Positions 2,250 to 53,443 are shown, numbered from the stretch's first letter. The stretch is 64,000 bases of DNA from Candidatus Geohabitans tengchongensis (GCA_031459625.1 JAVKIH010000002.1:145940-209939), one strand, 5' to 3'. Numbers and translations: made by a program. Notes: generated by a model not told the origin, from the letters alone.

Positions 2250-2762
2250 TTGTTGACCTGGGAACAACAGAATGGCCGAACAATCGTTGTTAGGACTCTA
2301 CGGATGCTGACGGCGGCCGAGCTGCGGGAGCGGTTCCAGGCACGCGGGCTACGCATCACCCCGCAGCGCGACCTGCTCTTCCGCCTGCTGGAGGAGCTGG
2401 AGGGGACGCACCCCACGGCCGAGACCCTCCACCTGCGGGCCGCCCGGGTGATGCCCTCGATCTCCCTGCGGACGGTCTACGCCATCCTGGAGGAGCTCGC
2501 GGAGGTCGGCGCGGTCCGCCCGCTGGAGCTGGGCACCGGCAGCAAGCGCTTCTGCACCACCGTGACCCGCCACCACCACCTGGTCTGCGACCGCTGCGGG
2601 AAGGTGCTGGACGTCTTCGTGAACGTCGGGCCGGTGGAGATCCCGCCCGAGCAGGCCCGCGGCTTCTGCGTCACGGAGCAGTCCCTGGTCTTCCGCGGTG
2701 TCTGCGCGGACTGTCAGCGCATGGCGCCATCGGCCTCTGCCGAGCCAGCGGCCCGGCCCTGA
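2250..2762 (+). CDS. fur: Fur-family metal-responsive transcriptional regulator (TTG at 2250 or, more likely, ATG at 2304)
   Basis: Winged-helix N-terminus, HHHLVCDRCGKV and CADC metal-binding motifs typical of Fur/Zur/PerR; divergent from iron ABC transporter. Confidence 0.8.
   Translation: MLTWEQQNGRTIVVRTLRMLTAAELRERFQARGLRITPQRDLLFRLLEELEGTHPTAETLHLRAARVMPSISLRTVYAILEELAEVGAVRPLELGTGSKRFCTTVTRHHHLVCDRCGKVLDVFVNVGPVEIPPEQARGFCVTEQSLVFRGVCADCQRMAPSASAEPAARP
2275..2292. promoter_or_regulatory. Candidate Fur-family operator GCCGAACAATCGTTGTTA (inverted repeat AACAA-TCG-TTGTT) in fbpA/fur divergent promoter; a second IR TGTTG-N9-CAACA lies at 2251-2269
   Basis: Identical 18-mer recurs at 53426-53443 upstream of the FTR1 iron permease; palindromic arms. 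Confidence 0.55.
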
Positions 2763-4057
2763 CGTCGATCCCCCAGGACCCCCAGACGAGCCTGCGCGAA
2801 CTCTTCCTGCTCCGCTCCGACGTCGTCTTCCTGAACCACGGGGCCTTCGGCGCCTGCCCGCGGCCCGTCTTCGAGGCCTACCAGCGGTGGCAGCGCGACC
2901 TCGAGGCCCAGCCGGTGGAGTTCCTCGGCCGCCGATTCCCCGACCTCATGCGCGAGGCCCGGGGGGCGCTAGCCGCGTTCGTCGGCGCCGACCCCGACGA
3001 CCTGGTCTACCTGCCCAACGCGACCACCGCGCTCAACACCGTGGCGCGCTCGCTCCCCCTCCGCCCCGGCGACGAGGTGGTGGGGACCGACCACGAGTAC
3101 GGCGCGGTAGACCGCCTCTGGCGCTTCGTCTGTGCGCGCCGCGGGGCGCGCTACGTCCGGGCCAGGGTGCCTGTCCCGGTGGAGACGCCGGCGCAGGTGG
3201 TCGAGGCGGTGTGGGCTCACGTCACCGAGCGGACGCGGGTGCTGGCCTGCAGCCACCTCACCTCCCCGACCGCCCTGATCTTCCCGCTCGCGGCCCTCCT
3301 CCGCCGGGCGCGTGCGGCGGGGATCCTCACCGTGGTCGACGGCGCGCACGTGCCCGGACAGATCCCCCTCGACCTGCGGGCGCTCGACCCGGACTTCTAC
3401 GCAGGGAACTGCCACAAGTGGCTCTGCGCGCCCAAGGGGGCGGGGTTCCTCTACGCGCGCCGGGACCGCCACGGGCTGCTCGAGCCGCTGGTGATCAGCT
3501 GGGGGTGGGATCGGGGCGAGGAACGCTCCGGCGCTGCCGCCCGCGTCCGGTCCGTCACCGAGGACGCCGGAGACGGCACCGCCCGCGGCGACAGCGAGGA
3601 GGCGAGGGACGAGGGACGCGAGACGGCGAGAGGCGGCGGGCTCGTCCTAGGACGGGCGGCCTCACGCCTGGTGGCGGAGCACGAGTGGCAGGGCACGCGC
3701 GACATCGCCGCCTGGCTCAGCGTCCCCGAGGCCATCCGGTTCGTCCAGACACACCTGGGACCGAAGGTCCGCGACCGCTGTCACGCCCTGGCCCGGCGGG
3801 CCCGCGTCGAGATCACCGCCCTCACCGGCCTGCCTCCGCTCAGCCCCGACGATGCGGGCTGGTACGCCCAGATGGTCAGCGTGCCCTTGCCCGTGGCCGA
3901 CCCCGAGGCCGCGCAGCGGCACCTGCGCGGGGAGGGGATCGAGGTGCCGGTCTTCCGCTGGACCGACCGCTGCCTGCTCCGGGTGTCGGTGCAGGCCTAC
4001 AACGAGCCGGCCGACATCGAGCGCCTGGTCGCGGCGGTGCGACGGCTCCTGGGCTGA
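2759..4057 (+). CDS. Aminotransferase class V (isopenicillin-N-epimerase/cysteine-desulfurase-like PLP enzyme) with an internal acidic/Gly-rich insertion; start codon unresolved
   Basis: Conserved N-terminal block LRELFLLRSDVVFLNHGAFG lies upstream of the first ATG (2915), in-frame with no stop back to the Fur stop; no ATG/GTG/TTG available, possibly CTG 2759 overlapping fur TGA. Confidence 0.7.
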   Translation: MTSIPQDPQTSLRELFLLRSDVVFLNHGAFGACPRPVFEAYQRWQRDLEAQPVEFLGRRFPDLMREARGALAAFVGADPDDLVYLPNATTALNTVARSLPLRPGDEVVGTDHEYGAVDRLWRFVCARRGARYVRARVPVPVETPAQVVEAVWAHVTERTRVLACSHLTSPTALIFPLAALLRRARAAGILTVVDGAHVPGQIPLDLRALDPDFYAGNCHKWLCAPKGAGFLYARRDRHGLLEPLVISWGWDRGEERSGAAARVRSVTEDAGDGTARGDSEEARDEGRETARGGGLVLGRAASRLVAEHEWQGTRDIAAWLSVPEAIRFVQTHLGPKVRDRCHALARRARVEITALTGLPPLSPDDAGWYAQMVSVPLPVADPEAAQRHLRGEGIEVPVFRWTDRCLLRVSVQAYNEPADIERLVAAVRRLLG

Positions 4058-4066
4058 CCGGGCACC

Positions 4067-5425
4067 TCAGGGCTGCAGAGGCGCCAGGGCGGCCATCGCC
4101 GCCTCCACCGCCTCCTGCGGGTAGGCGAAGTCCTCCAGCCGGCCGGCCAGGAACTCCTCGTAGGCGCGCAGGTCGAAGTGCCCGTGCCCGCTCAGGTTGA
4201 AGAGGATCACCCGCCGCTCGCCGCGCTCGCGCGCCTCCACCGCCTCGTCGATGACCCGGCGGACGGCGTGCGCCGACTCCGGTGCCGGCACGATCCCCTC
4301 GGCCCGGGCGAACTGCACCGCCGCCTCGAAGACGGCCCGCTGCGGGTACGCCGCCGCCTCGATGTACCCGTGGTCGTAGAGCAGGCACAGCGACGGCGCG
4401 TCGCCGTGGTAGCGCAGCCCGCCGGCGTGGATCCCGGGCGGCACGAAGGTGTGGCCGAGCGTGTACATCTTGAAGAGCGGAGTGGTGGCGGCGGTGTCGC
4501 CAAAGTCGTAGAGGTAGCGCCCGCGGGTGAGGGAAGGACAGGCCTCGGGCTCCACCGCCACGAAGCGCGTCTTCGCCCCCTTGAAACGGTCGGGCAGGAA
4601 AGGGTAGGCCAGGCCGGAGAAGTTACTCCCCCCGCCCACGCACCCGATGACCACATCCGGCCCTTCCCCGGCCAGCTCCATCTGCCGGCGGGCCTCCAGC
4701 CCGATCACCGTCTGGTGGAGGAGGACATGGTTGGCCACGCTGCCGATGGCGTACTTGGTGTCGTCGTGGGTAGCGGCGTCCTCCACCGCCTCGCTGATGG
4801 CGATGCCGAGGCTGCCCGGCGAGTCGGACTGGCGCTCCAGGACGTCCCGCCCCGCCCGCGTCCGCTGGCTGGGGCTCGGCACCACCTCGGCGCCCCAGGT
4901 CTCCATCATCACGCGGCGGTAGGGCTTCTGCTCGTACGAGACCCGCACCATATACACGGTGCACGCCAGGTCGAAGAGCCGGCAGGCCAGGGCCAGCGCC
5001 GAGCCCCACTGCCCGGCCCCCGTCTCCGTGGTCAGGCGTCGGGTCCCCGCCTGTCTATTGTAGAAGGCCTGGGCCACGGCGGTGTTGGGCTTGTGGCTGC
5101 CGGCCGGGCTCACGCCTTCGTACTTGTAGTAGATGTGCGCGGGCGTCTGGAGGGCCTGCTCCAGCCGGTAGGCGCGGTGGAGCGGCGTGGGGCGCCACAG
5201 GCGGTAGACGTCGCGCACCGGTTCGGGGATGGGGATCTCCCGCTCGGTGGAGACCTCCTGGAGGATGATCTCCGTGGGGAAGATGGGAGCCAGGTCGTCG
5301 GGACCGATGGGCTGCTTCGTCCCCGGGTGGAGAACGGGCGGCAGCGGGACGGGCAGGTCGGCCAGGACGTTGTACCAGGCCTTCGGCAGGTCGCGCTCGT
5401 CCAGGACGAACTTGGTCTGGGGCAT
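4067..5425 (-). CDS. TrpB-like PLP-dependent enzyme (tryptophan synthase beta chain 2 / TrpB2 family)
   Basis: 452 aa, GSHKPNTA lysine motif region and TrpB2-type length/sequence; convergent with the aminotransferase. Confidence 0.8.
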
Positions 5426-5541
5426 GACACCATCCCTCCCGGTCGCACGACAGCTCCGTGCGGTGACTCCCTGAGGAACCCAGCAGGGGCCATTCGCCGC
5501 GGCCCGCCCGGCTTCCCGCTGGGCGCCCCCTCCGCGCCCCC

Positions 5542-5922
5542 CTAGGCGTCAGCCGGCTTCGATGGGGGTTCGATGGGGGCGTGCAGCTCGACCATGCGGC
5601 CGTCGGGGTCGTAGAGGTAGGCCGAGCGCCCCCAGGGAAACCGCGCTGGTCCCAGGACCGCGTAGCCGGCGGTCCGCAGGCGCTCGCACTCCGCCTCCAG
5701 GTCGTCCACCTCGAGGGCGATGTGGTCCACGTCCGCAGGCCAGCCGGGGGCGGGGGGCCCATCGCCGACCGGGTGGACGAGCAGCGTGACTCCGTCCACC
5801 GAGAAGTGGTAGGCACCCTGACCCGAGGCCGGGATCGGGTGCTCCAGCAGGGCGGCGTAGAACGCGGCCACAGCGTCCGGTTGCCTCGTGAACCGGGCCA
5901 CCTCGCTGATGCGGCGCCTCAT
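5542..5922 (-). CDS. VOC family protein (glyoxalase/bleomycin-resistance/dioxygenase fold)
   Basis: ~126 aa from MRRRISEV…; VOC-like sequence ([21 protein letters not shown]). Confidence 0.65.
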
Positions 5923-5981
5923 CCCTCCCCCCTTCACCCCAGTGAACGCCGAGGAGTCCATGACTTCGAAGGCTCTTCACA

Positions 5982-6020
5982 TAGCGTCACTCAGCGTCGC
6001 TTAGCGTCACTCAGCGTCGC
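5982..6020. repeat. Perfect tandem duplication of a 19-20 bp unit (TAGCGTCACTCAGCGTCGC x2) giving four AGCGTC hexamers at ~10-bp spacing
   Basis: Read directly: …atAGCGTCactcAGCGTCgcttAGCGTCactcAGCGTCgccg…, intergenic between opine DH stop and VOC start. Confidence 0.8.
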
Positions 6021-6090
6021 CGTCGGCGCCTCCTCCAGGGCGGCCGGTCCGGTCCCCATGGCGGGAACGGCGATTCGCGACCTCGCCGCC

Positions 6091-7212
6091 TCACCGCGGA
6101 AAACCCTCCCAGGGGCCGTTTGCCGCCAGTCGTTCCACCTCCGCCCGCGTCGCCCCGGCGATGCCCAGACGGCCCGCATGGAGCCCGACGGCCCGGTAGT
6201 CCACGCCGGTGACCACGGAGGCCAGGTGGATGAGCGCGTCCACCGTGGGCACCGACACGGCCGCGGCCTGCGCGAAGGCGGCCATGGGGACCAGGCCGTA
6301 GCCCACGTCCTCCTCGATGTACCGCCCCTCTAGGTTGGGCGGGGCCTTGATGTACCTGTTCGGGACGCTGTCGCGCAGCGCTTCGAAGACCGACCCGGCC
6401 TCCCAGGCGCGGCGCGACGTGAAGCCGGCCCGGTAGAAGAACTCCAGGAAGGAAGGCGTCTCGACACCGTAGGCCCGGGCGATCGCCTGGCGGTCCCGGT
6501 CCAGGGCCTCGATGGCCCGGGCCACCCCCGGGGTGGTCCCCTCGTAGTAGTAGTAGAACTGCCCGGCGGTGTGCTCGACCCACCCGGTGTTCAGCACCAT
6601 GCCCGCCGGGTGGAGGACCGCGTTGAAGTTGGACAGCGAGGTGACCAGCACCGTGGGGACGGGCTGGAGCTGCGGGTAGTAGCGCGCCAGCCGCCGGCAG
6701 GCATCCTCCCTGAGGCGCGCGGGCAGGACGCCGGCGGCGACGGTGCGGGCGGGCCCGGTGATGTTCACCCTGGTCGGCGAGACCATGCGGCAGATGTAGG
6801 TTAGCGTGTTGAACTCGACGACGGGCACCGGAGGAGCACCGCGGTCGGCGAGCCGCCGGGCGACGTGCAGGGCGCTGCCGGTGTTGCTGGCGTTGAGGAC
6901 CACCAGCTGGCCGGGCTCCAGGCAGTGCGCCAGCTGGTCGACGTAGAAGCTCTGACCCGGTGCGGGCACGGTGAGCATGACGACCTCCGCCCCGCGTACC
7001 GCCTCGGCCACCTCGGTGGTGATGCGCCCCACGGGTACGGTGGCCTCGCCCGGCGCTCCTGTGACCTCCACACCGCCCAGGCGCTGGAAGGGCAGGAGCC
7101 GCTCGGGACTCCGGTTGCACAGCGCCACGCGGAAGCCGCGCAGCCCCAGGTCCGCCGCTGCGGCCACGCCGCCGTTGCCCGCCCCCAGCACCGCCACGTC
7201 GATCCGCTCCAC
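6091..7212 (-). CDS. NAD/NADP octopine/nopaline (opine) dehydrogenase family protein
   Basis: 373 aa; N-terminal Rossmann VAVLGAGNGG and opine-DH-like C-terminal domain. Confidence 0.75.
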   Translation of the reverse strand: MERIDVAVLGAGNGGVAAAADLGLRGFRVALCNRSPERLLPFQRLGGVEVTGAPGEATVPVGRITTEVAEAVRGAEVVMLTVPAPGQSFYVDQLAHCLEPGQLVVLNASNTGSALHVARRLADRGAPPVPVVEFNTLTYICRMVSPTRVNITGPARTVAAGVLPARLREDACRRLARYYPQLQPVPTVLVTSLSNFNAVLHPAGMVLNTGWVEHTAGQFYYYYEGTTPGVARAIEALDRDRQAIARAYGVETPSFLEFFYRAGFTSRRAWEAGSVFEALRDSVPNRYIKAPPNLEGRYIEEDVGYGLVPMAAFAQAAAVSVPTVDALIHLASVVTGVDYRAVGLHAGRLGIAGATRAEVERLAANGPWEGFPR

Positions 7213-7217
7213 GGCGG

Positions 7218-8375
7218 CTAGCTCCAGGCCAGGCGGTAACGGCCCAGCTTGTCCGGGTCCACCGTAATCCCCAGCCCCGGCCCTGAGGGCACGCGCAGGG
7301 CGCCGGCACGGTATTCGAAGGGCGCGGCGAGGAGGTCATCGGTGTAGATCCGACCGGCCACCCGGGTCTGCTCCCGGCCGGCCACCGTGGTGATCGGGAT
7401 GATGGCCGGCACCGTGACGGCCGCCGACGCTGCCCCCAGGTGCAGATTGGCCGCGTTGCCGATGCCAAACTCCGCCGAGCCGCCCACGTCGGCCTCCATC
7501 CCCGCTGCCTCCAGGACGGCGGCCATCTGGCGCGCCCGGTACAGGCCGCCCGGTTTGGTCACGTAGAGCGAGACGTACCGCGCCGCACCGGCCTCCCGCA
7601 GGTGGAGGACGTCGCGCGGCGTCCAGGCGCTCTCGTCGGCCATGATGGGGACACTGACCGCGCGGGCGACGGCCGCCAGTTCGTCGATCCCTTCCGTCGG
7701 CTGCTCGGCCAGGGCCAGCCCCCACCGCTCCAGGACCCGGAGGGTCCGGATGGCCACGGGGACGGTGTAGGCCTGGTTGGCGTCGAGCCGGATCTCCACG
7801 TCCGGTCCCACGGCTTCCCGCACCGCCTCCACGGTGCGGATGTCCCGTGCCGGATCGGGGCCGCCTTTGACCTTGATGTGCGCGATCCCCTCCCCGACGA
7901 CCTGCCGCGCCTCCTCCACGGCCGCCTCCACGTCCATCAGGCCGATGCTGTGCCCCACGGGGATCCACTCCCGCACCTTCCCGCCCAGGAGCTCGTAGAC
8001 CGGGACGCCCAGGGCCCTCCCCTTCAGATCGTGCAGGGCGATGTCCAGGGCGGCCTTGGCGTAGGGGTGGCCCTTGATGACGCGGTCCATGACCTGATGG
8101 ACCCGGGGCAGGTCGAAAACGTCCTCCTCCCGGAGGGCGGGCAGGAGGAGGTCCTGCAGCACGTGGCGCACCGTCTGCGGCGTCTCGCCGTAGTGGGTGC
8201 CGTAGGCGCCGCCCCAGTCTGGCAGGCAGGGCGTCTCTCCCCACCCCTCCAGGCCGTCCTCGCCACGTACCCGCACGACGACGTAGCGGCCGATGGGTCC
8301 CTGCAGGCCCGCCCACCGGTGCACCCGGCGGGTCGGCAGGCCGACCAGCATCACCTCGAGCTCCGCAATCCTCAT
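7218..8375 (-). CDS. Mandelate racemase/muconate lactonizing enzyme (enolase superfamily) family protein
   Basis: 385 aa from MRIAELEV…; KVKGG, RLDANQAYT, ADES motifs; ORF-track 5' extension is spurious. Confidence 0.8.
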   Translation of the reverse strand: MRIAELEVMLVGLPTRRVHRWAGLQGPIGRYVVVRVRGEDGLEGWGETPCLPDWGGAYGTHYGETPQTVRHVLQDLLLPALREEDVFDLPRVHQVMDRVIKGHPYAKAALDIALHDLKGRALGVPVYELLGGKVREWIPVGHSIGLMDVEAAVEEARQVVGEGIAHIKVKGGPDPARDIRTVEAVREAVGPDVEIRLDANQAYTVPVAIRTLRVLERWGLALAEQPTEGIDELAAVARAVSVPIMADESAWTPRDVLHLREAGAARYVSLYVTKPGGLYRARQMAAVLEAAGMEADVGGSAEFGIGNAANLHLGAASAAVTVPAIIPITTVAGREQTRVAGRIYTDDLLAAPFEYRAGALRVPSGPGLGITVDPDKLGRYRLAWS

Positions 8376-9262
8376 GCTCCGCCCTCGCCCGCTGCCCGCC
8401 GCCGCCCCGCCCTGGCGACCCGGGAGCGGAGGAAGAGGTAGTCGCCGGCGCGCCGGACGCTGTGGAGGGAGAGGTGGGGCGCCACACCCGGCAGGAAGCC
8501 GGCGCCCTCCACCAGGCTCGGACGGGGACGGCGGCGGGACCCATCGCCGATGATGAGAGGACAGATCGTCAGGAACTCGTCGTCGACGCAGCCGGCCCGC
8601 AGCAGGGTGCCGTAGGTCCGCGCGCCCCCCTCGCACAACAGCGTGCGCACGGCGAACCGCCGGACCAGCATGGCCAGCAGCCGGCGGACCTGCACGGTGG
8701 CCGTCCCGAATGCCAAGACCTCCACCCCCCCTCGCCTGGCTACGGCGCGGGCAGCCTTCACCCCCCTGGTGGTGGTGGCCACGAGGACGCGCTGCCCCGT
8801 GCGGAACACCCGGGCCCGGCCGGGCAGCTCACCCGTCTGGGAGAGGATGACCAGCAGAGGGACCCGCTCCCGCCCCTCGGCGCGTCGGAGGGCGGCGAAG
8901 GCGGCCGCGTCGGCAGGAAAGATGTGTTCCGCGGTCCACACGTGGGAGGGGGAGGCCCGCAGGGTGCCGTCCCCGACCATCACCGCGTCCGCCCGCGCCC
9001 GCAGGAGGCCCATGAGCCAGCGGTCGTGCGGGTTGCGCTCGCTGACGTCGGCCGCCCCCCTGTGCCCCGGCACGTTGAAGGAGATCCGCCCGTCGTGCGA
9101 GGTGGCGAAGTTGACGAAGGTGTAGGGACGGCGCTCCCCACGGGGCAGCCGCCAGTCTCCACCATAGATGGCCCGAAAGGGCTCCGGCAGGGGGAGATCG
9201 CCTTCCTGGTCCCGCTCGAAGAGCAGGGCAAAGGGCCGACCGGGGCCCGTGGGCGCGATCAC
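8372..9262 (-). CDS. RibD C-terminal domain / dihydrofolate-reductase-like reductase
   Basis: RRPYTFVNFATSHDGRISF motif typical of RibD_C/DHFR-like family; GTG start overlapping upstream TGA (GTGA). Confidence 0.65.
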   Translation of the reverse strand: MIAPTGPGRPFALLFERDQEGDLPLPEPFRAIYGGDWRLPRGERRPYTFVNFATSHDGRISFNVPGHRGAADVSERNPHDRWLMGLLRARADAVMVGDGTLRASPSHVWTAEHIFPADAAAFAALRRAEGRERVPLLVILSQTGELPGRARVFRTGQRVLVATTTRGVKAARAVARRGGVEVLAFGTATVQVRRLLAMLVRRFAVRTLLCEGGARTYGTLLRAGCVDDEFLTICPLIIGDGSRRRPRPSLVEGAGFLPGVAPHLSLHSVRRAGDYLFLRSRVARAGRRRAAGEGGA

Positions 9263-9534: not shown

Positions 9535-9544
9535 GTCCGGCACG

Positions 9545-10564: not shown

Positions 10565-11583
10565 GCGAGTGCGCTCCCGTCGTGGGTCTCGACGTAGACG
10601 TCCTCCAGGGCTTCGTCGGCCGCGGGGCGCGGCGCCTGCAACGCGAAGCGGACGCCGGCCTCCAGCCGCGCCTCCACCGCGCGCTCGACCTCCTCCAGGT
10701 CGGCCGTGGTGAACCCCGCCTCGGCCAGCAAGCGCTCCCGGAAGGTGACCACGGGATCCCGGGCCTGCCAGGCGGCCACCTCGTCCGGCGGACGGTAGTG
10801 TCCCATGTCGCCTTCGTAGTGCCCGCGCAGGCGGTAGGTCTTGCACTCGACCAGCGTCGGCCCCCGCCCCTGGCGCGCGTCGGTCACGGCCTTGCCCACG
10901 ACACGGAAGACATCGAGGACGTCGTTGCCGTCGGCGACCACCCCCGGCATGGCGTAGGCCACCGCCCGCCCGGCGATGTCCCGGATCGGCTGGTGCCTGT
11001 GCTGGGGGGTGAACTCGCCGTAGAGGTTGTTCTCGCAGATGAAGACGACCGGCAACCGCCACAGGGCGGCCAGGTTCAACGACTCGTGAAACACCCCTTG
11101 GTTGGAGGCCCCGTCGCCGAAGAAAGCCACGGCCACGCCGGCTGTGGGGGCCCCGGTCCCGGCCAGACGGGCGCGCACCGTCAGGGCGAGCGCCAGGCCC
11201 ACCGCGATGGGGATGCCGCCGCCCACGATGCCGTTGGCGCCCATGATGCCCAAGGCCGCGCTGGCGATGTGCAGGGACCCGCCCTTCCCCCGGTTGTAGC
11301 CTTCGCGGCGGGCAAAGAGCTCCGCGTACATGCGTCCGGGATCGGCGCCGCGCGCCAGGATGTGGCCGTGCCCCCGGTGGGTGCTGGTGATGTAGTCCTG
11401 GGGCTCGAGGGCGGCGCAGGCGCCCACCGCCACCGCCTCCTGTCCGATGGAGGGGTGGAGGAAGCCAGGGATGTGGCCGGCCAGGCGCAGTTGGGCCGCC
11501 CGCTCCTCGAACCGGCGGATGAGCAGCATGTCCGCGTACAGCCGTCGGAGGAAGTCGGGGGTGTAAACCATGGAGGCGCGCAT
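10561..11583 (-). CDS. 2-oxoacid dehydrogenase E1 component alpha subunit (TPP-dependent)
   Basis: 340 aa; TPP motif FFGDGASNQG…ENNLYG, YRLRGH. Confidence 0.85.
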   Translation of the reverse strand: MRASMVYTPDFLRRLYADMLLIRRFEERAAQLRLAGHIPGFLHPSIGQEAVAVGACAALEPQDYITSTHRGHGHILARGADPGRMYAELFARREGYNRGKGGSLHIASAALGIMGANGIVGGGIPIAVGLALALTVRARLAGTGAPTAGVAVAFFGDGASNQGVFHESLNLAALWRLPVVFICENNLYGEFTPQHRHQPIRDIAGRAVAYAMPGVVADGNDVLDVFRVVGKAVTDARQGRGPTLVECKTYRLRGHYEGDMGHYRPPDEVAAWQARDPVVTFRERLLAEAGFTTADLEEVERAVEARLEAGVRFALQAPRPAADEALEDVYVETHDGSALA

Positions 11584-11586
11584 GGC

Positions 11587-12420
11587 TCACCCGCCCTCCC
11601 GGCGGGGAAACCGGTCGGCAAAGATCGCGTGGATGGCCCGCACAGCCTCCCCGGACGTGCCCCGCGGTTTCACCTCGAACACCAGGGTCCCGTCGAAGCC
11701 CAGCTGGTGGAGATGCCGGTTGAGGTTCACAAAGTTGATCTCCCCGGTCCCCGGCTCGTGACGTCCGGGGACGTCGGCCACGTGCACGGCGGCCACCCGG
11801 TGGTGACACCGCTCCAGCGTCGCCATGAGGTTGCCTCCCGCCTGCTGCTGGTGGAAGTAGTCGTAGGTCATCGCCAGGGAGGGGTGGTCGACGGCCTCCA
11901 CGAGGCGCAGGCATTTCTCCGCCGTGTCCAGGAAGTACCCGGGGACCGAGACGGGGTTGATGGCCTCCAGCAACAGCACGACCCCGTGGGCCTGGGCCAG
12001 CGCGGCGGCCTGCCTCAACCCCTCCACCGCGTTCTCGAAGGCCTCCGCCTCGGCGAGCGGCCGGGTCGGGGGCACCACCGTCCCGTCCTGGCGGATCTCC
12101 TGGACGAAGGCGTGGACGGCCGGACACCCGACACGCCGGGCGCAGGCCAGGGACTCGGCCAGGCCGTCCAGGTTCGGGGCGTGCTGGGTGCGGTCAATGA
12201 GGGAGTAGCGGCGGTTGCCGAAGAAACCGGTAATGACCACGCCGGCGTGCGCCGCGGCGTCCGCCAGCCGGTCCATCTCCTTGGTGCGCCAGTCCCAGAA
12301 CTCCACGCCCTGGAACCCCGCCTGGGCCGCCGCCGCCACCCGGTCCACCAGCGGGAGCTCCGCGAACAGGAACTCGATGGACGCCGACGTGCCGACCACG
12401 GACCCGGGCGGGCGGCTCAT
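11587..12420 (-). CDS. Sugar phosphate isomerase/epimerase (xylose-isomerase-like TIM barrel; hydroxypyruvate isomerase-like)
   Basis: 277 aa from MSRPPGS…; TIM-barrel isomerase family sequence; ATGA overlap with upstream permease. Confidence 0.7.
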   Translation of the reverse strand: MSRPPGSVVGTSASIEFLFAELPLVDRVAAAAQAGFQGVEFWDWRTKEMDRLADAAAHAGVVITGFFGNRRYSLIDRTQHAPNLDGLAESLACARRVGCPAVHAFVQEIRQDGTVVPPTRPLAEAEAFENAVEGLRQAAALAQAHGVVLLLEAINPVSVPGYFLDTAEKCLRLVEAVDHPSLAMTYDYFHQQQAGGNLMATLERCHHRVAAVHVADVPGRHEPGTGEINFVNLNRHLHQLGFDGTLVFEVKPRGTSGEAVRAIHAIFADRFPRREGG

Positions 12421-14948: not shown

Positions 14949-14952
14949 GGGC

Positions 14953-39750: not shown

Positions 39751-39753
39751 GGG

Positions 39754-44708: not shown

Positions 44709-44783
44709 GGGTCCGGAGCGGTCCCCGCTCGATCTCCAACCCGCAACGCGTGTAGCGCGGACGACACCGCGGAGTCGGCCAAC

Positions 44784-44814
44784 CCGCCGCGCGGCGCCTC
44801 TTGCGCGCGGCGGG
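44784..44814. terminator. GC-rich 9-bp-stem hairpin (CCGCCGCGC…GCGCGGCGG) between convergent ydiJ-like and DUF72 genes; possible bidirectional terminator
   Basis: Read directly; no clear U-tract. Confidence 0.3.
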
Positions 44815-44849
44815 GGTCGAGGCCGGCGGCCTCGGCCGGCACGAGCGCC

Positions 44850-45623: not shown

Positions 45624-45662
45624 GCGCTCGCGGCCCCCCTTCGCCGCGAGGGCGCAGGGCTC

Positions 45663-46423: not shown

Positions 46424-47200
46424 TCCTCCCACCGGCGTCTCCCGGCGCACCGCCACGCCCCGCGCCTCCAGGTAGCGCTTCACCTCGTCGATGCGCACCG
46501 CCCCCGTGTGGAAGATGGACGCGGCCAGGGCGGCATCGGCCTTGCCCGCGGTGAGGACGGCGTGGACGTGCTCCGGGGTCCCCGCCCCGCCCGAGGCGAT
46601 GACCGGGATCGCCACGGCCTCGGCGACGGCGCGCGTGAGCGCCAGGTCGTAGCCCTCCTGGGTGCCGTCGCGGTCGATGCTCGTCAGCAGGATCTCCCCG
46701 GCGCCCCGCGCGGCCACCTCCTGCGCCCACGCCACCGCGTCCCGCCCGGTGGGGCGGCGGCCGCCGTGGGTGTAGACCTCCCACCCGTCGCCGGCGGCGC
46801 GCCGCTTCGCGTCGATGGCCACGACCACGCACTGGCTGCCGAAGCGGTCGGCCGCCTCCTCGACCAGCGCCGGGTCGGCCACCGCCGCCGTGTTGACCGC
46901 CACCTTGTCCGCGCCCGCCCGCAGGAGCCGCCGCACGTCCTCCACCGAGCGCACCCCGCCGCCGACGGTCAGCGGGATGGTGAGACGGGCCGCGGCCGCC
47001 CGCACCGCCGCCTCGAGCGTCTCCCGGCCCTCCACGGAGGCCGTGATGTCGAGGAAGACCACCTCGTCCGCGCCCTCCCGGTCGTAGAGCGCGGCCAGCT
47101 CGGCGGGGTCGCCGGCGTCACGCAGGTTCACGAAGCGGACACCCTTCACCACCCGGCCGGCATCCACGTCCAGGCAGGGGATGATGCGCGCGGCTACCAT
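46412..47200 (-). CDS. hisF: Imidazole glycerol phosphate synthase cyclase subunit HisF
   Basis: 262 aa; [23 protein letters not shown]…. Confidence 0.9.
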
Positions 47201-47940
47201 GCGCCTCCTCCCGTGGCCGTTCCCGTTCCGACAGCCATCAGGTCAACCCGTCCCTCGTACAGCGCCCGGCCCACGATGGCCCCGGCCGCGCCCGCCTCCG
47301 CCAGCGCCGCCAGGTCCTCGGGGCGGCCCACGCCCCCGGCCGCCAGGACGGGGACCTGCACAGCCCGGCAGAAGGCCCGGACCGCCTCCACGTCCGGTCC
47401 TGTCAGCGTCCCGTCCCTGCTCACCGCCGTGTAGATGAAGCGCCGGATCCCCGCGTCGACCAGCCGCCGGGCCAGGTCGAGCGGGGCGTCCCCGGCCGCC
47501 CTCCACCCGTCCACCATCGCCCGCCCGCCCCGCACGTCCAGGGCCGCAGCGACCCGCTCGCCGAACCGCCCCGTCGCCGCAGGGGCCAGGGCCAGGGCGG
47601 CGGTGCCGAGCACCACGCGGGCCACGCCGGCAGCGAGCAGCCGCTCGACGTCCTCGAGCGTGCGCACGCCGCCGCCGGCCTGCACCGGCACGGGGACCGC
47701 CCGGGCGATCGCCTCGATGAGGTCGCGGTGCACGGGACGGCCGGCGAAGGCGCCATCGAGGTCCACCACGTGCAGCCAGGGAGCGCCCCGCTGTGCCCAG
47801 GTCCGCGCCACCGCCACCGGGTCGCCACTGTAGACGCGCTCGCGGGCGGGATCCCCCTGGACGAGGCGGACGCAGCGGCCGGCGCGCAGGTCCACCGCCG
47901 GGATCACCGCGAACGTGCGGAGCGGCGCGGGGAGCGTCAT
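47194..47940 (-). CDS. hisA: ProFAR isomerase HisA
   Basis: 248 aa from [26 protein letters not shown]; ATGA overlap with hisH stop. Confidence 0.85.
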
Positions 47941-48626
47941 GGCACGGGCGCCGGATGGCGGGGCTCGCCGCCCAGCCGGCCCGCAGCGGCCAGGCGGACG
48001 ATCCCTTCCAGCAGGCGGCGGCCGGTCGCCCCGCTCTTCTCCGGGTGGAACTGCACCCCGAGGAGCGCTCCACGGCCCACCACTGCCGCCACGGGGCCGC
48101 CGTAGTCGGTGACGGCCAGGACATCCTCCGTGCGGCCCGGGCGCACGACGTAGCTGTGGACGAAGTAGGCCCACGCGCCCTCGAGGCCGTCCAGCACCGG
48201 GTGCGCGGCCGTGCAGCGCAGGCGGTTCCAGCCCATGTGCGGGACCTTCAGCTCCGCCGGCAGCCGGACCACCTCGCCGGGGAGCAGCCCCAGCCCCTCC
48301 GCCCCGCCGCCTTCGCCGCTGCGCTCGAAGAGCAGCTGCATCCCCAGGCAGACGCCCAGCAGCGGGGTGCCCCGTCGCACCTCCTCCACCAGCCAGGCCG
48401 GAAACCCGGCGGCGGCCAGACGGGCCATGGCCGGCGGGAAGGCGCCCACACCGGGCAGCACCAGCAACGCCCACGGACCGGCTTCCGGCGCGGGCGCGGG
48501 CAACACCGTCACCGCCGCACCCGCGCGGGTGAGCGCGCCCACCAGGCTGAAGAGGTTGCCGGCCCCGTAGTCGATCACGCCGACGCGCGGGGCCTGCGGC
48601 ACGGACGGGGCGCCCGGAGCGCTCAC
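47937..48626 (-). CDS. hisH: Imidazole glycerol phosphate synthase glutamine amidotransferase subunit HisH
   Basis: ~229 aa from GTG; GVIDYGAGNL, GVCLGMQ (catalytic Cys), HPEKS; GTGA overlap with hisB stop. Confidence 0.85.
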   Translation of the reverse strand: MSAPGAPSVPQAPRVGVIDYGAGNLFSLVGALTRAGAAVTVLPAPAPEAGPWALLVLPGVGAFPPAMARLAAAGFPAWLVEEVRRGTPLLGVCLGMQLLFERSGEGGGAEGLGLLPGEVVRLPAELKVPHMGWNRLRCTAAHPVLDGLEGAWAYFVHSYVVRPGRTEDVLAVTDYGGPVAAVVGRGALLGVQFHPEKSGATGRRLLEGIVRLAAAGRLGGEPRHPAPVP

Positions 48627-49249
48627 AGCACGCCCTTCGTCGAGGGGATGGCCTCGCCGCGCACCCGGGTAGCCCGTCCCAGGACGATCCCCGTCCCCTT
48701 GAAGGCCGCCTCCAGCACGTGGTGCGCGTTCTCGCCGTGCCACTGCACCAGGTGGAGCGTGACCGCGGCGTGCGTGGTGAAGGCACGGAAGAACTCCCGC
48801 GCGAGGTCGGTGGGGAACGTGCCGAGGAGCTGCGGCGGCACGGTCAGCCCGTAGTGCAGGTAGGGGCGGCCGCCCACGTCGACGGCGGCCAGCACGAGCG
48901 CGTCGTCCATGGGCACGTGCTGCGAGGCGAAGCGCACGATCCCCTGCCCGCTGCCGACGGCCTCGCGCAGGGCCTGGCCCAGCACGATCCCCGTGTCCTC
49001 GACGGTGTGGTGGGGGTCGACCGCCAGGTCGCCCCGCGCGTGGACCTCCAGGTCGAAGCCGCTGTGCCGGGCCAGGGCGGTGAGCATGTGGTCGAGGAAG
49101 GGCACCCCGGTCGCCACCACGCTCTCGCCGGCACCGTCCAGGGTGAGCGCCACGGTCACCGCCGTCTCGGCGGTGCGGCGCTCCACGCGCGCCAACCGCA
49201 GGGCGCGCTCCCCGCCGCCCGCTGCCGACGCGCGCGCCCCCGGCGGCAT
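48623..49249 (-). CDS. hisB: Imidazoleglycerol-phosphate dehydratase HisB
   Basis: 208 aa; IGPD motifs (HHTVEDTGIVLG, HVLEAAFKG). Confidence 0.9.
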   Translation of the reverse strand: MPPGARASAAGGGERALRLARVERRTAETAVTVALTLDGAGESVVATGVPFLDHMLTALARHSGFDLEVHARGDLAVDPHHTVEDTGIVLGQALREAVGSGQGIVRFASQHVPMDDALVLAAVDVGGRPYLHYGLTVPPQLLGTFPTDLAREFFRAFTTHAAVTLHLVQWHGENAHHVLEAAFKGTGIVLGRATRVRGEAIPSTKGVL

Positions 49250-50400
49250 CAGGCGCCCTCCCCCAGCACGCGCCGCAGGGCGGCGACGAACCGGTCGTCC
49301 TCCCCCGGCTGCCCCACGCTCACCCGCAGGCAGCCGGCCAGCGCCGGCCAGGCGGAGACGTCGCGCACCAGCACCCCGTGCGCCAGGAGGCGCGCCGCCA
49401 CCTCGGGCGCGGGCAGCGGCGTGCGAAAGAGGAGGAAGTTGGCGTCGGAGGGGAAGACGGTGACACCCGGCACCTCTCGGAGCGCACCGGCCAGCCGCTC
49501 CCGCTCCGCCACCACCGTCCGCACCCGCTCGGCCACGAGGTCGGGGCGTTCCGCCGCGGCCCGGGCCGCCTCCAGCGAGAAGACGTTCAGCGTGTAGGGT
49601 GGCAACGCCCGGCGCACCGCGCCGATGACCTCCGGGTCGGCGACGATCCAGCCGATCCGTGCGCCGGCGAGCGCCAACGCCTTCGACGCGGTACGCAGCA
49701 GGGCGACGTGCGGGTACCGGTCTAGCAGCGGCCGGTGCGTGCGCCCGGCGAAGGCGGCATAAGCCTCGTCGACCACCACGAGCCCGGGGGCGCCGCGCAC
49801 GACCGCCTCCACGGCCTCGGGGGAGAAGGCGTTCCCGGTAGGGTTGTTGGGCGAGGTGAGGAAGACCACGGGCGCGGTCTCGCCCGAACCCGCCCCATCC
49901 GCTGCCGGTTCGCCCGCTGCCGTCTGGCGCGCGGTTGCGTGGCGCGCGGCCGCCAGCACCGCCCCGGGGTCGAGCGCGAAGTTAGGGCGCAGCGGCACCT
50001 CGACCAGACGCGCGCCGGCGCTCGCCGCCAGCGCCCGGACCATCGAGTACCCGGGCACCGGGAAGACCACGGCACCGCCGGCGGCGAAGGCCAGCAGCAC
50101 TCCCAGGATGGCCTCGTTGGAGCCGTTCGTCGCCAGCATCATCTCCGGGTCGACGCCCTCCAGGCGGGCCAGCGCCGCGCGCACCTCCGCCGCGTCGGCC
50201 TCCGGGTAGCGGTGCCACGCCCGGGCGGCCACGCGCTCCAGGACGACGCGCTTGAGGTCGGCCGGCCAGTCGGCCGGGCTCTCGTTCCGGTTGAGCCGCA
50301 CCGGCGCGTGCTGCGCGACCCGGTACAGGGGCAGCGCGGCCACTTCCGGGCGGGGCCGGGCGCGCTGCGGGATCGGGCGGACGCCGGGGCGCGGCATCAC
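49249..50400 (-). CDS. hisC: Histidinol-phosphate aminotransferase HisC
   Basis: 383 aa class I/II aminotransferase with SPNNPTG and TASKALALAGARIG (PLP-Lys) blocks. Confidence 0.85.
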   Translation of the reverse strand: MMPRPGVRPIPQRARPRPEVAALPLYRVAQHAPVRLNRNESPADWPADLKRVVLERVAARAWHRYPEADAAEVRAALARLEGVDPEMMLATNGSNEAILGVLLAFAAGGAVVFPVPGYSMVRALAASAGARLVEVPLRPNFALDPGAVLAAARHATARQTAAGEPAADGAGSGETAPVVFLTSPNNPTGNAFSPEAVEAVVRGAPGLVVVDEAYAAFAGRTHRPLLDRYPHVALLRTASKALALAGARIGWIVADPEVIGAVRRALPPYTLNVFSLEAARAAAERPDLVAERVRTVVAERERLAGALREVPGVTVFPSDANFLLFRTPLPAPEVAARLLAHGVLVRDVSAWPALAGCLRVSVGQPGEDDRFVAALRRVLGEGA

Positions 50401-50422
50401 GCGGGGCTCACGAACGGCCGAT

Positions 50423-51052
50423 TCATGTGGCCTGCACCGCAGGCGCCACCGCCTCGAGCAGCGCCCGCACGCCCGGCGCCTTGAGCCGCAGGCTCACCCG
50501 GTTTACCACCAACCGGGCGGTGGAGCGGAAGACCTCGGCCACCTCGACCAGGCGGTTCGCCCGCAGCGTGCGACCGGTCATCACCAGGTCGACGATGGCG
50601 TCCGCCAGGCCCACCTGCGGGGCCAGCTCCAGCGCCCCGTGCAGGACGATGACCTCCACCGGACGGCGGGCCTGCTCGAAGAACCGCGCCGTCACGCGCG
50701 GGTAGCGGGTGGCCACGCGCAGCGGGGCCGAGCCGGCGAGCAGCGCCTCCCGGCCGGCCGGCACCGCCACCACAGCCCGGCAGGCGCCGAACCCCAGGTC
50801 GGCCAGCTCGTAGACGTCGGCCTCCTGCTCGAGGAGCAGGTCCTGGCCGACGATGCCCGCGTCGGCCGCGCCGTGCTCCACGTACGTGAGGATGTCGAGC
50901 GGCTTGGCCACGAGGATGCGCCCGCCCTCCGGCCCCGGCAGGACGAGGGCGCGCTCGGGCGGCGGGGCGTCGAGCAGCCGGAGCCGCTGCAGCAGCGCCA
51001 CGGCCTCGGGGAAGAGGCGGCCGGTGGGGACGGCCAGCGTCAGTGGCTCCAC
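50423..51052 (-). CDS. hisG: ATP phosphoribosyltransferase catalytic subunit HisG (short form)
   Basis: ~209 aa from GTG (VEPLTLAVPTGRLFPEA…); short HisG partnered with HisZ. Confidence 0.8.
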   Translation of the reverse strand: MEPLTLAVPTGRLFPEAVALLQRLRLLDAPPPERALVLPGPEGGRILVAKPLDILTYVEHGAADAGIVGQDLLLEQEADVYELADLGFGACRAVVAVPAGREALLAGSAPLRVATRYPRVTARFFEQARRPVEVIVLHGALELAPQVGLADAIVDLVMTGRTLRANRLVEVAEVFRSTARLVVNRVSLRLKAPGVRALLEAVAPAVQAT

Positions 51053-52254
51053 GCTCCCACCTCCGGACCCCCGGCCACCTGGTGGGCGTCCGCGGCGGCC
51101 ACCACGTCGGCGGCCCCTGCCACCGGCACGCGCCGCTCGACGGTGGGACCGTCGCCGCGGAGCCGGCGCACGCGAGCACCGTCGCCGTCCACCCACATCA
51201 CCCAGCGCGCGCCTTCGCGCCCGGCCCGGTCCAGGGTCTTCTCCCAGGAGCGGCCCGGCTCGGCGATGACGGCGGCCCCGGCCTCGCGCAGGCCGCGGGC
51301 CAGGCGCAACGCGGAGGCGCGCGCCGTCGGTTCCGCCCAGGCGATGAGGACGTCCAGCTCCTCCTCGCCGTCCGCGACGAGGGCCACCACGCGGTCGACG
51401 CCCAGGGCGAACCCCGTCGCCGGGGCAGGGGTCCCGAAGGCGGCCAGGAGGCCATCGTACCGCCCGCCGCCGAGCAGCGGGTAGCCCGAGCCGGCCCCGT
51501 AGCCCTCGAAGACGACGCCGGTGTAGTAGCTGAAGTCCCGGATGATGCTGAGGTCGACCGCCGCCGCCTCGCCCACACCGTGCTCCTCCAGCCGGCCCAG
51601 CAGCGCCTCGAGCCCCGCGAGCGCGGCCTCCCCGCGTTCCGTGCGCACCACCGCCCGCGCCGCCGCCAGGGCGTCACCCCCCTGCAGCAGCGGCAGCTCG
51701 CGAAGGAACGCGCCGAGGTGCCGGTCGGGGACCGTCGTCTCGATGCCGGCGAACTGCTTGCGGTAGAGACGGGCCACGAGCGCGTCCCGCGTCTCCGGGG
51801 GCAGCGCGCCCAGGGCGTCGTCCAGGAAGCCGATGTGGCCCACCGTCACGACCGGCCGGGCGATGCCGGCGCGCCGCAGCGCCTCCACGGCCAGCGCGAT
51901 CACCTCGGCGTCCGCGTCTACGCCGTCCTCGCCCAGGCGCTCGACCCCGGCCTGCGTGAACTCCCGCAGCCGCCCCCGCCCCTCCTCCTGCTCCCGGTAG
52001 ACCGGCGCCACGTAGGCCAGGCGCAGCGGCCCGGCGGCATCCGGCAGGAGACGGGTGGCGGCCAGCCGGGCGATGGAGACGGTCAGGTCGGGGCGCAGGG
52101 CCAGCAGCTCCCCCCGCCGGCCGACCACCTTGAAGAGGCGGTCCTGGATCCCGGGCCCGCCGCCGTGGACGAGCGTCTCCAGGTACTCCAGCGCGGGGGT
52201 GAGGACCTCGCGGTAGCCCCAGGCGCGGAAGGTGCCCCGCAGGCGGCCGACCAC
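51040..52254 (-). CDS. hisZ: ATP phosphoribosyltransferase regulatory subunit HisZ; true start probably ~31 codons upstream (CTG near 52347) with no canonical start codon available
   Basis: Class-II aaRS-like HisZ sequence; conserved N-terminal LPRGLRDLAPAEA block lies upstream of the first GTG/ATG, in-frame after a TAA at ~52363, and is preceded by SD AAAGGAG. Confidence 0.8.
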   Translation of the reverse strand: MVGRLRGTFRAWGYREVLTPALEYLETLVHGGGPGIQDRLFKVVGRRGELLALRPDLTVSIARLAATRLLPDAAGPLRLAYVAPVYREQEEGRGRLREFTQAGVERLGEDGVDADAEVIALAVEALRRAGIARPVVTVGHIGFLDDALGALPPETRDALVARLYRKQFAGIETTVPDRHLGAFLRELPLLQGGDALAAARAVVRTERGEAALAGLEALLGRLEEHGVGEAAAVDLSIIRDFSYYTGVVFEGYGAGSGYPLLGGGRYDGLLAAFGTPAPATGFALGVDRVVALVADGEEELDVLIAWAEPTARASALRLARGLREAGAAVIAEPGRSWEKTLDRAGREGARWVMWVDGDGARVRRLRGDGPTVERRVPVAGAADVVAAADAHQVAGGPEVGAWSH

Positions 52255-52363
52255 CCGCAGGTGGCGGGCCGCCTCGGCGGGGGCCAGGTCGCGCAGGCCG
52301 CGGGGCAGCGCGGCCCAGCGCTGGCGGGGGCCGGTGCGCAGGCGCAGCGAGACTTCACTCCTT

Positions 52364-52390
52364 TAGCAAGTTAAATTGCTACCGAAGCAA
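52364..52390 (-). promoter_or_regulatory. Low-GC hisZ leader with three mutually exclusive pairing elements TAGCAA / TTGCTA / AGCAA adjacent to the hisZ SD
   Basis: Read directly (…tTAGCAAgttaaaTTGCTAccgaAGCAAa…); may also terminate the upstream FTR1 transcript. Confidence 0.35.
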
Positions 52391-52468
52391 ACTGCCGTTG
52401 AGGATACCCCGGCGGTGGCCGGCACGTCAACCCGGTGGGGCGGCAGGGCGGCCGCGGCGCGAGGTCGG

Positions 52469-53302
52469 CTAACCGACGCGCTCGGTCGTCGGGCGCAGCT
52501 CCCGGAGGGTGGGCGGGCGGAAGTAGGCCCACCCCACGAGCCCGAGGTAGCCCCCGTAGGCCACGACCTCCACCAGCGAGGGGTCGCCGTTGTAGCCGAA
52601 GAGCGCGGCCAGGAAACTCCCCAAGAGGGACCGTTCGTCCAGCACGGCGTTCGTGTTCCAGACGGGCTCCACGAGCGCCGGTACCAGGCCGGCCTCGTGG
52701 AACTCGTGAAGGCCGTGGGCGAGCAACCCGGCCGCGAAGAGGAGCAGCAGGATGCTGGTGACGTTGAAGAACGCCCGCAGGTTCAGCCGGTAGGTGCCGC
52801 GGTAGAGCAGGTAGCCCAGCACCGCCGCGGCCGCGAGGCCGAGCCCTCCGCCCAGCAGCGCCGCGGAGGCCGAGGCGGTCGTGATCGCCGCGATCATGAA
52901 GAGGACGGTCTCGAGCCCTTCCCGCCCCACCGCGACGAAGGCCAGCAGGCCCAGCGCCCACAGGGAGCCGGATTCCAGCGCCGTCTGCACCTGGGCCTGC
53001 AGGTGCGCCCGGATGCCGATGGCCTGACGCCGCATCCAGAAGATCATGTAGGCGAGGACGCCCGCGGCCGCCACCATGGTAGCGCCCTCGAAGATCTCCT
53101 CGGCGTGCCCCTCCAGGCCCCCAGCCGTGAGGAAGATCGCTACGCCGGCGGCCACGCTGAGCACGATGCTCGACACGGTCCCCAGCCAGACGGCGCCCGC
53201 CTTGTCCCGGTGTCCGGTCCTGGCCAGGTAGGCCAGGATGATGCCGAGGATCAGCGCCGCTTCCAGACCCTCCCGCAGGGTGATCAGCAGAGACGAAGCC
53301 AT
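52469..53302 (-). CDS. FTR1-family high-affinity iron permease (EfeU/FTR1-like)
   Basis: Two REGLE motifs (LREGLEAAL, GREGLETVLF), 7 TM; start at MASSLLITLREG. Confidence 0.8.
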   Translation of the reverse strand: MASSLLITLREGLEAALILGIILAYLARTGHRDKAGAVWLGTVSSIVLSVAAGVAIFLTAGGLEGHAEEIFEGATMVAAAGVLAYMIFWMRRQAIGIRAHLQAQVQTALESGSLWALGLLAFVAVGREGLETVLFMIAAITTASASAALLGGGLGLAAAAVLGYLLYRGTYRLNLRAFFNVTSILLLLFAAGLLAHGLHEFHEAGLVPALVEPVWNTNAVLDERSLLGSFLAALFGYNGDPSLVEVVAYGGYLGLVGWAYFRPPTLRELRPTTERVG

Positions 53303-53425
53303 CGCTGCTCCTCTCCTGGGCCCGCGCGCGGGCTCGTGGGCCGGCGCGCGGGCTCGACGTGCCGGGGCCCGGGTGTCACGCCGCGGGTAGGCTACCTCGG
53401 TGCGTGCGGCGACAACAAGGGGATT

Positions 53426-53443
53426 GCCGAACAATCGTTGTTA
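53426..53443. promoter_or_regulatory. Second copy of the 18-bp candidate Fur-family operator GCCGAACAATCGTTGTTA, ~125 nt upstream of the FTR1 start; preceded by ACAACAAG half-site
   Basis: Identical 18-mer to 2275-2292. Confidence 0.55.

Follow-up and report, generated by a model that had tools for sequence, protein, structure and literature searches.

A 13-bp inverted repeat as putative operator of a PerR-derived Fur-family protein at iron-uptake promoters of Candidatus Geohabitans tengchongensis

The stretch of Candidatus Geohabitans tengchongensis DNA analyzed here (64,000 nucleotides (nt), GCA_031459625.1 JAVKIH010000002.1:145940-209939; hereafter the 64-kb window) contains two identical copies of the 18-mer GCCGAACAATCGTTGTTA, one between a Fur-family regulator gene (fur) and the divergent gene of the iron binding protein FbpA, and the other upstream of the gene of an FTR1 iron permease. 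The conserved unit of this 18-mer is a core of 13 base pairs (bp), AACAATCGTTGTT, which forms the inverted repeat AACAA-TCG-TTGTT and is referred to as the box in the following. From comparison with related loci we consider it likely that the Fur-family protein encoded at 2304-2762, a member of a distinct PerR-derived clade from Armatimonadota-type metagenome genomes, uses this repeat as its operator. The two sites and the gene of the presumed regulator are located as follows.

2275..2292, + strand: copy 1 of the 18-mer (core 2279-2291), an exact match conserved in orthologous loci
53426..53443, + strand: copy 2 of the 18-mer (core 53430-53442), an exact match
2304..2762, + strand: gene of the Fur-family regulator, the presumed box binder, 152 amino acids (Pfam, public gene calls)

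Occurrence and conservation of the inverted repeat

The first-pass annotation had described the exact 18-mer at fbpA/fur and at FTR1, which is confirmed by a mismatch scan, by shuffled sequences and by the gene context. Besides the two copies, both of them on the + strand, the 64-kb window holds no match to GCCGAACAATCGTTGTTA with up to three mismatches. Matches were also absent from 100 dinucleotide-preserving shuffles (none expected by chance), and AACAA-N3-TTGTT with at most one mismatch is found in the 64 kb only at the 18-mer copies themselves. As the G+C content of the window amounts to 73.5%, a 13-mer in which nine positions are A or T is conspicuous. The previous idea of a motif adapted to a genome of about 70% G+C is not borne out by the core with its 9/13 A+T; throughout the recovered loci, the box rather tracks the clade of proteins whose altered recognition helix reads SLRTVYA[IV]L.

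The start codon of fur is ATG 2304, in agreement with the public calls of a 152-amino-acid protein and with the conserved N-termini of the orthologues (M-[LI]-x-A-x-[ED]-L), and not the TTG at 2250 that had been assigned before. The 18-mer is therefore located upstream of the gene and not inside it. Copy 1 lies 11 nt upstream of this ATG, and its core, 12 nt before the start codon, adjoins the fur Shine-Dalgarno sequence AGGA (2292-2295). Seen from the other side, the divergent fbpA transcript is predicted to begin about 54 nt past the core centre. At copy 2, 123 nt separate the 18-mer from the ATG of FTR1 (53302, - strand). Orientation and register relative to the iron gene are those of copy 1, and there is no fur gene nearby. 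The likeness of the two sites extends beyond the 18 bp to a CCGCGG-TAGGCTA block and an AACAA pentamer, which recur at exactly corresponding positions over a stretch of about 63 bp, with diverged sequence between them. Blastn and tblastn searches for a remnant of a fur gene beside copy 2 returned the 18-mer and the CCGCGG-TAGGCTA block alone.

The Fur protein is unchanged in several metagenome-assembled genomes labelled Armatimonadota, e.g. GCA_031460055.1, and orthologues with 57-72% identity are common. In relatives, the fur orthologue is divergent from fbpABC (loci L007, L008) or from FTR1 (L009, L010, L011, L012, L040) and is therefore persistently linked to either of the two transporters that bear the 18-mer. 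The orthologue set comprised about 35 loci (L007-L012, L040 and L046-L079) with 44-95% protein identity and the regulatory-site signature H-C-H-H-D described below. Scanning metagenome contigs by alignment contributed 35 loci (44-95% identity), which gave the same outcome, and a Fur-protein scan of genome contigs yielded mostly distant homologues, which served as outgroup only. AACAATCGTTGTT, either exact or differing at one or two positions, is present upstream of fur at every recovered orthologue, always in one orientation. The distance to the gene start is at most about 60 nt in about 35 of 35 clade loci, with the box further upstream in four loci whose true start is undefined, and the AGG of the ribosome-binding site mostly follows directly 3' of the box. 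In a matrix of 29 sites, both the AACAA arm (28-29 of 29) and the TTGTT arm (24-29 of 29) are invariant or nearly so, and the T-C-G centre is also strongly conserved; L010, L051 and L058 have a perfect AACAAT-C-ATTGTT. On both strands of 535 kb of fetched DNA, this matrix matched fur-proximal sites, copy 2 of the window and a duplicate in L049 only, and it matched none of the 27 loci with more distant Fur/PerR homologues (other helix types, Asp at position 85). The box is also absent from FTR1 promoters without an adjacent fur gene (L042, L043) and from the fbpA promoter of L044, which has dtxR and fbpABC and no fur.

This co-occurrence, i.e. presence at about 35 of 35 clade loci, at 0 of 27 outgroup loci and absence where fur is locally absent, is what comparative analysis usually takes as evidence that an operator is cognate and autoregulatory, and from it we infer binding. 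It supports the earlier proposal that the 18-mer would be the site of the neighbouring Fur-family protein, the box being found at every recovered orthologue and missing from the 27 outgroup loci. A different protein as the binder of the box, e.g. a DtxR-like or YerC/TrpR-like one, appears extremely unlikely to us. It is true that a YerC gene (53524-53862) adjoins copy 2 and that dtxR is linked to fur in some relatives, but YerC is near the box in no other locus, L044 with dtxR and without fur is boxless, and the DtxR consensus fits another element of these promoters (see below) and not the box. The claim of a simple iron regulon is not supported in its stated form. As the iron promoters without fur in L042, L043 and L044 are boxless, copy 2 of the window species is the sole evidence for such a regulon beyond the fur-linked promoter.

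Regarding its architecture, the box agrees with the operators of the Fur family in being an odd-centred inverted repeat sized for one dimer (7-1-7 or 6-1-6). The smallest site for one Fur dimer is a single odd-centred inverted repeat (7-1-7), and the classical 19-bp Fur box GATAATGATAATCATTATC can be read as overlapping 7-1-7 repeats (PMC5007448, PMC11353095). In common with these operators, the box is short and A+T-rich and is located at the regulator's own gene as well as at metal-uptake promoters, with 4 of 6 positions identical between AACAAT and GATAAT. It differs from them by C/G in place of T/A in the middle of each arm, by the strict 5-3-5 part AACAA-N3-TTGTT with its asymmetric TCG centre, by being a single site instead of overlapping repeats, and by its position upstream of the -35 of the iron genes instead of over -35/-10. 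The core as a whole matches the canonical consensus GATAAT-C-ATTATC at 8 of 13 positions. The first-pass annotation had called the classical boxes different in look; in sequence, only these 8/13 positions are shared, and the odd-centred layout is like that of a Fur-family box. Presumably, the box differs from the PerR box as well. In the searchable literature, the exact motif was not found as a regulatory site and no study of Fur regulation in this phylum was found. Two other classes of operator were considered and rejected: a LexA/Cheo-box (CGAAC-N4-GTTCG), as relatives do not retain the CG at the flanks and GTTGT forms the right arm, and a LacI-type even palindrome about the central CG, as inspection of the sequence shows the arms to be unpaired in that register.

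Two loci are mentioned separately. In the short metagenome contig L049 (1-500), two copies of the complete promoter module enclose partial starts of fur and FTR1; this contig is probably a chimeric assembly of strain variants. In L013, an Actinomycetes metagenome genome, a differing palindrome of the ACAAT-N-ATTG type, TGACAATTATTGCAA, is located at about 3880-3900 upstream of a more distant homologue with PerR-type signature; it may be an ancestral form of the box.

The remaining genes around the two sites are listed here.

1102..2136, - strand: fbpA, ferric-iron binding protein of the FbpABC transporter (Pfam; PDB FbpA/HitA matches to E=5e-89)
1-1041, - strand: partial gene of the permease fbpB
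52469..53302, - strand: FTR1/EfeU iron permease gene, 277 amino acids (Pfam, family models)
53524-53862, - strand: YerC/TrpR-like gene adjoining copy 2 (Pfam, family models)

According to the gene calls, fbpA is followed by fbpB and then fbpC. No other iron-related genes and no additional sites are present in the 64-kb window. The window species has an aminotransferase gene 3' of fur, at the place where some relatives have a DtxR/IdeR-like gene. Gene content beside the fur locus differs at the strain level between L002 and L001 of the same species: in L002, a gene with a DUF772 transposase-associated domain (11444-11863) is found after a shortened aminotransferase gene 3' of fur.

The Fur-family protein and its sensing site

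In B. subtilis PerR numbering, the regulatory site of the window protein consists of His37, Cys85, His91, His93 and Asp104. This H-C-H-H-D set occurs in 60 of the 62 clade members and is H-C-H-H-N in the other two; Cys85 is invariant (62/62). Among the next most similar proteins (46-57% identity), nearly all have H-D-H-H-D, the full PerR set. Established sites are His37, Asp85, His91, His93 and Asp104 for PerR, Glu at position 104 for Fur, and an S-donor Cys at the Asp85-equivalent together with the lack of His37 for Zur (PMC4866751). With B. subtilis PerR, the window protein shares His37, His91, His93 and Asp104 and the four structural Cys residues, which leaves it at four of five regulatory residues, with the invariant Cys in place of Asp85; the genes linked to the box serve iron uptake and not peroxide defence. 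Fur sensu stricto is not matched either, position 104 being Asp (60/62) or Asn (2/62) and position 85 Cys. The Cys is common to Zur, but His37 is invariant in the clade and the linked transporters are of the FbpA and FTR1 iron type, in contrast to zinc-uptake genes or zinc-independent ribosomal protein paralogues. An iron-sensing Fur, as implied by the earlier interpretation as an iron regulon, is therefore not what these residues describe, H-C-H-H-D being neither the Fur, the PerR nor the Zur site by the residues given in PMC4866751. Database comparisons point in no single direction: PDB matches are level between the Fur structure 9ire (E=9.6e-20) and B. subtilis PerR 2fe3 (E=1e-19), and all family-specific models score below their cut-off, PerR being the highest. 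Judged by these residues, the regulator is a PerR-derived branch with a Zur-like Cys and not a classical Fur.

The clade is also set apart by its recognition helix, SLRTVYA[IV]L (SLRTVYAIL in the window protein), as compared to SL[RK]TVYQTLN in the nearest outgroup, TVYQTL or TVYRxL in more distant homologues, which have Asp at position 85 and no box, and TVYNNL in B. subtilis PerR. An altered helix of this kind fits the altered box.

Promoter modules and a second, DtxR/IdeR-type element

The iron-gene promoters of the relatives contain a second conserved sequence that the first-pass annotation had missed. When about 30 of them are aligned in sense orientation, the consensus reads GGATTGACn-(spacer ending CTCAAGAATTAGGA)-TAGCCTAAC, with TTGACn-17-TAGCCT 35-45 nt before the iron-gene start in relatives. 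In these approximately 30 promoters, the palindrome TTAGG-N4-CCTAA overlaps the -10 hexamer TAGCCT. The DtxR/IdeR consensus is TTAGGTTAGCCTAACCTAA (PMC7762939), and an IdeR half site consists of two CCTAA repeats in inverted orientation, 4 bp apart (PMC10317159). Like DtxR/IdeR operators, the second element of the relatives (TTAGG-ATAG-CCTAA) overlaps the -10 of iron-uptake promoters; it has three of the four pentamer repeats and is therefore probably a one-dimer site. For scoring, a position weight matrix (PWM) was derived from the eight proven C. diphtheriae DtxR sites (PMC524172), which themselves score 12.2-21.5. The sites of L008 and L010-L012 agree with the DtxR consensus at 15 of 19 positions, contain an exact TTAGG-N4-CCTAA and score 14.6-15.0, within the range of the proven sites. 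The corresponding elements of the window are the following.

2231..2249, - strand: DtxR/IdeR-type box of the fbpA promoter, reading TAAGGATAGCCTAGCCGCG
53385..53397, - strand: DtxR-type remnant of the FTR1 promoter, with the -10 TAGCCT (53394 to 53389) retained and the left palindrome arm lost
2262..2267, - strand: predicted -35 of the fbpA promoter, TTGTTC, 18 nt from TAGCCT, assigned by register with relatives
53413..53418, - strand: predicted -35 of the FTR1 promoter, TTGTTG, 18 nt from TAGCCT, assigned by its exact register with 2262-2267

At fbpA, the element includes the predicted -10 TAGCCT (2243 to 2238) and the degenerate half site TAAGG-ATAG-CCTAG. With 13 of 19 consensus positions and a score of 9.4 it is the top 19-mer of the 64-kb window, but below the proven C. 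diphtheriae sites. At FTR1, the remnant is down to 10 of 19 positions and a score of 1.0, and a relative with 97% identity has a further indel within it. Since scans of both regions with the sigma-70 consensus found no promoter, these assignments rest on the alignment with the TTGACn-17-TAGCCT promoters of relatives. A second degenerate element of the TGTTG/CAACA type that had been noted next to the 18-mer is indeed present at both sites, but it is in register with the predicted -35 of the iron-gene promoter. The putative DtxR/IdeR-type operator over the -10 is thus strong in relatives, of moderate quality at fbpA and decayed at FTR1.

A candidate for the cognate protein is encoded in relatives at the following places behind fur.

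L008 6417-7076, L012 3157-3822 and L040 2693-3385: DtxR/IdeR-like genes behind fur

This gene, which encodes a three-domain DtxR-like protein, shares 4 nt with the 3' end of fur in L008 and L040 and is contiguous with fur in L012, so that both metalloregulators would be co-transcribed behind the Fur-type box. In L044, a DtxR-like gene directly precedes fbpABC. The DtxR-like protein retains Met10, Cys102, Glu105 and His106, and sulfur ligands among these residues increase Fe2+ selectivity. A tblastn search of the 64-kb window gave no dtxR gene.

Some further features of these promoters were observed. Between fbpB and fbpC of L044 (7387-7404), a second promoter-like sequence, TTGACG-17-TAGCCT, contains the near-perfect 18-bp palindrome AATTAGACTAGCCTAATT, a hint of a DtxR-controlled promoter inside that operon. 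Conservation of the promoter spacer reaches well past the IdeR-type half site ([CG]TCAAGAATTAGGnTAGCCTAAC) in about 30 promoters, e.g. L012 2570-2600, L043 3920-3965 and window positions 2244-2259, and in L043 the -35 hexamer and the spacer form the inverted repeat TTGAC-ggag-GTCAA. The conserved spacer could be an extended DtxR footprint or the site of another factor.

In the window copy 1 and in L007, L009-L011 and L047-L055, both elements are combined in a compact module with a fixed length of about 60 bp, GtTAGGCTATCCTAATTCTTGAC-N4-GAACAA-N-AGAAT-N5-AACAATCGTTGTT. Read on the iron-gene strand, the Fur-type box is located at about -60 to -48, followed by the -35 TTGTTS, an 18-nt spacer and the -10 TAGCCT, which is embedded in the IdeR-type site; transcription is predicted to start at about 2231 (fbpA) and 53382 (FTR1) on the - strand. 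In the direction of fur, the box adjoins the ribosome-binding site at a distance of 3-30 nt before the start codon and so must overlap the core promoter or the transcription start of fur, which is predicted to fall inside the box or shortly before it. A candidate for the fur -10 is the hexamer TAGAAT/CAGAAT 5 nt upstream of the box, for which no workable -35 was found. A role of the conserved sequence mainly in the core promoter or 5' leader of fur, with e.g. AACAAT as the -10, or as an RNA hairpin, would explain why it is always directly upstream of the fur ribosome-binding site in one orientation and why its asymmetric centre is conserved, and AACAAT agrees with TATAAT at 4 of 6 positions including A2 and T6. 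We nevertheless regard this explanation as very unlikely. Both arms are equally invariant, as for a dimer site, copy 2 has neither a + strand gene nor the matching promoter parts, and neither module type has a -35 hexamer suitably spaced from AACAAT. As to an RNA structure, hairpin stability is no better than that of shuffled sequences (z -1.4 to +0.3), and the window has no Rfam match.

The two window copies have decayed differently. Copy 2 retains the box, the -35 and the -10, but the fur-side parts, namely TATCCTAATTCTTGAC, AGAAT and the Shine-Dalgarno AGG, which are invariant in fur-linked modules, are lost. In a relative with 97% identity (L081-L083), bases beside the copy 2 box are altered and the box, the -35 and the -10 are unaltered. 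Together with the 18/18 identity of the two copies, this differential decay argues for selection on the box at FTR1 in the window species. Alternatively, copy 2 might be a non-functional relic of an ancestral compact fur-FTR1 module, with the fur-proximal copy alone at work. FTR1 is indeed directly divergent from fur within the same module in L009, L010, L011 and other loci, the FTR1 promoters without fur (L042, L043) are boxless, and copy 2 retains the ancestral register. We consider a relic unlikely, since both the fur-specific parts and the 31-nt stretch that separates the shared blocks have become near-random, yet the 18-mer is identical at 18 of 18 positions, and since the substitutions and the indel of L081-L083 fall around the box and none within it, a pattern that indicates purifying selection on the box at FTR1.

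Within the predicted FTR1 5' leader of about 80 nt, a tandem 20-nt G+C-rich repeat was observed at 53320-53359 (gcccgcgcgcgggctcgtgg / gccggcgcgcgggctcgacg), each unit with the palindrome CCCGCGCGCGGG; the 97%-identical relative shows substitutions and a 2-nt indel there.

Proposed mode of action and significance

The following mechanism is proposed. A metal-loaded dimer of the Fur-family protein would bind the 13-bp repeat. At copy 1, where the site would be located between the fur core promoter and the ribosome-binding site, binding would block initiation and fur would be autorepressed; in relatives with dtxR behind fur, the Fur-type site would also set the level of DtxR. Both copies are just upstream of a weak predicted -35 (TTGTTS-18-TAGCCT), and binding there would probably hinder the recruitment of RNA polymerase and most likely lower transcription of fbpABC and FTR1 in the presence of the sensed signal. 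A Fur dimer has a footprint of about 27-30 bp, which would reach the -35. The direction of the effect is uncertain, as an upstream site could equally mediate activation. Ancestrally, the iron promoters would in addition have been controlled by a DtxR/IdeR-type repressor binding the TTAGG-N4-CCTAA half site over the -10, and through this site iron would have a second and probably its main input at fbpA as well as in the relatives. With its decay at FTR1, the Fur-type box would be left there as the sole recognisable operator. The sensed signal would probably be Fe2+; the ligand set allows iron, another metal or peroxide.

Several points weigh against assigning the box to the Fur-family protein as its operator. 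Protein and site are linked by their co-occurrence, the fur promoter could not be located, a consensus scan of the region having found nothing, and the sensing site with Cys85 and Asp104 does not match that of an iron-sensing Fur. A site centred near -54 is unusual for an occluding repressor, which makes the sign of the effect on fbpA and FTR1 uncertain. The asymmetric T-C-G centre is as conserved as the arms and suggests an extra constraint, e.g. an element of the fur promoter that overlaps it. FTR1 promoters without fur are boxless in two relatives (L042, L043), so that control of FTR1 may be species-specific or a relic of the ancestral fur-FTR1 module. Finally, the site search was limited to the 64-kb window and the fetched DNA (535 kb).

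The nature of the signal is where another explanation deserves consideration, which we regard as possible, though rather doubtful. In this case, the box would be bound by a Fur-family protein that senses peroxide or another metal and that sets its own level and, in relatives, that of DtxR, and iron would act via the DtxR/IdeR-type site over the -10. Asp104 as in PerR (Glu in Fur), the full H-D-H-H-D site of the nearest outgroup and PerR as the highest family model, albeit below cut-off, would be consistent with such a sensor, as would the joining of fur and dtxR behind the box in L008, L012 and L040 and the Fe2+-favouring Met10, Cys102, Glu105 and His106 of the DtxR-like protein. The DtxR-type site goes with every iron-gene promoter and the Fur-type box with fur. 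B. subtilis PerR represses fur, which is a parallel to a box that controls the gene of a second metalloregulator in the relatives. However, the PerR site is not intact, with Asp85 replaced by the invariant Cys, and the box is kept at the FTR1 promoter of the window, where the DtxR-type site has decayed. Moreover, dtxR was neither found in the window nor traced to the window species, and a release of iron uptake under peroxide stress would harm the cell.

Returning to the box as the operator of the Fur-family protein, autoregulated Fur-family operators at metal-uptake promoters are already well known as a kind of element. The novelty lies in its sequence specificity, in a sensing site of hybrid type that marks the clade, and in an IdeR-type half site with which it is paired in a fixed manner. 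Tentatively, and with considerable reservation, one may see here an undescribed PerR-derived Fur subfamily (sulfur-containing site His-Cys-His-His-Asp, re-tooled helix, operator AACAATCGTTGTT) that forms a two-input module with a DtxR/IdeR-type repressor in a back-to-back promoter of about 60 bp, in which the control of FTR1 was taken over from DtxR in the window species.

Overall, the box and the Fur-family protein would constitute a concrete operator-regulator pair for Armatimonadota-type metagenome genomes, a phylum without described transcription-factor sites. The fixed register of the Fur-type and IdeR-type sites, together with the differential decay of the window copies, marks the parts that each gene needs. 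In practice, the Fur-type box by itself is no sufficient basis for predicting the iron regulon of these organisms. By mixing PerR-like and Zur-like ligands, the clade provides a natural case for how ligand changes may re-tune sensing and helix changes the reading of DNA. If the signal is not iron but peroxide, or another metal bound via the Cys, the protein would represent a new type of sensor that is wired directly to iron uptake.

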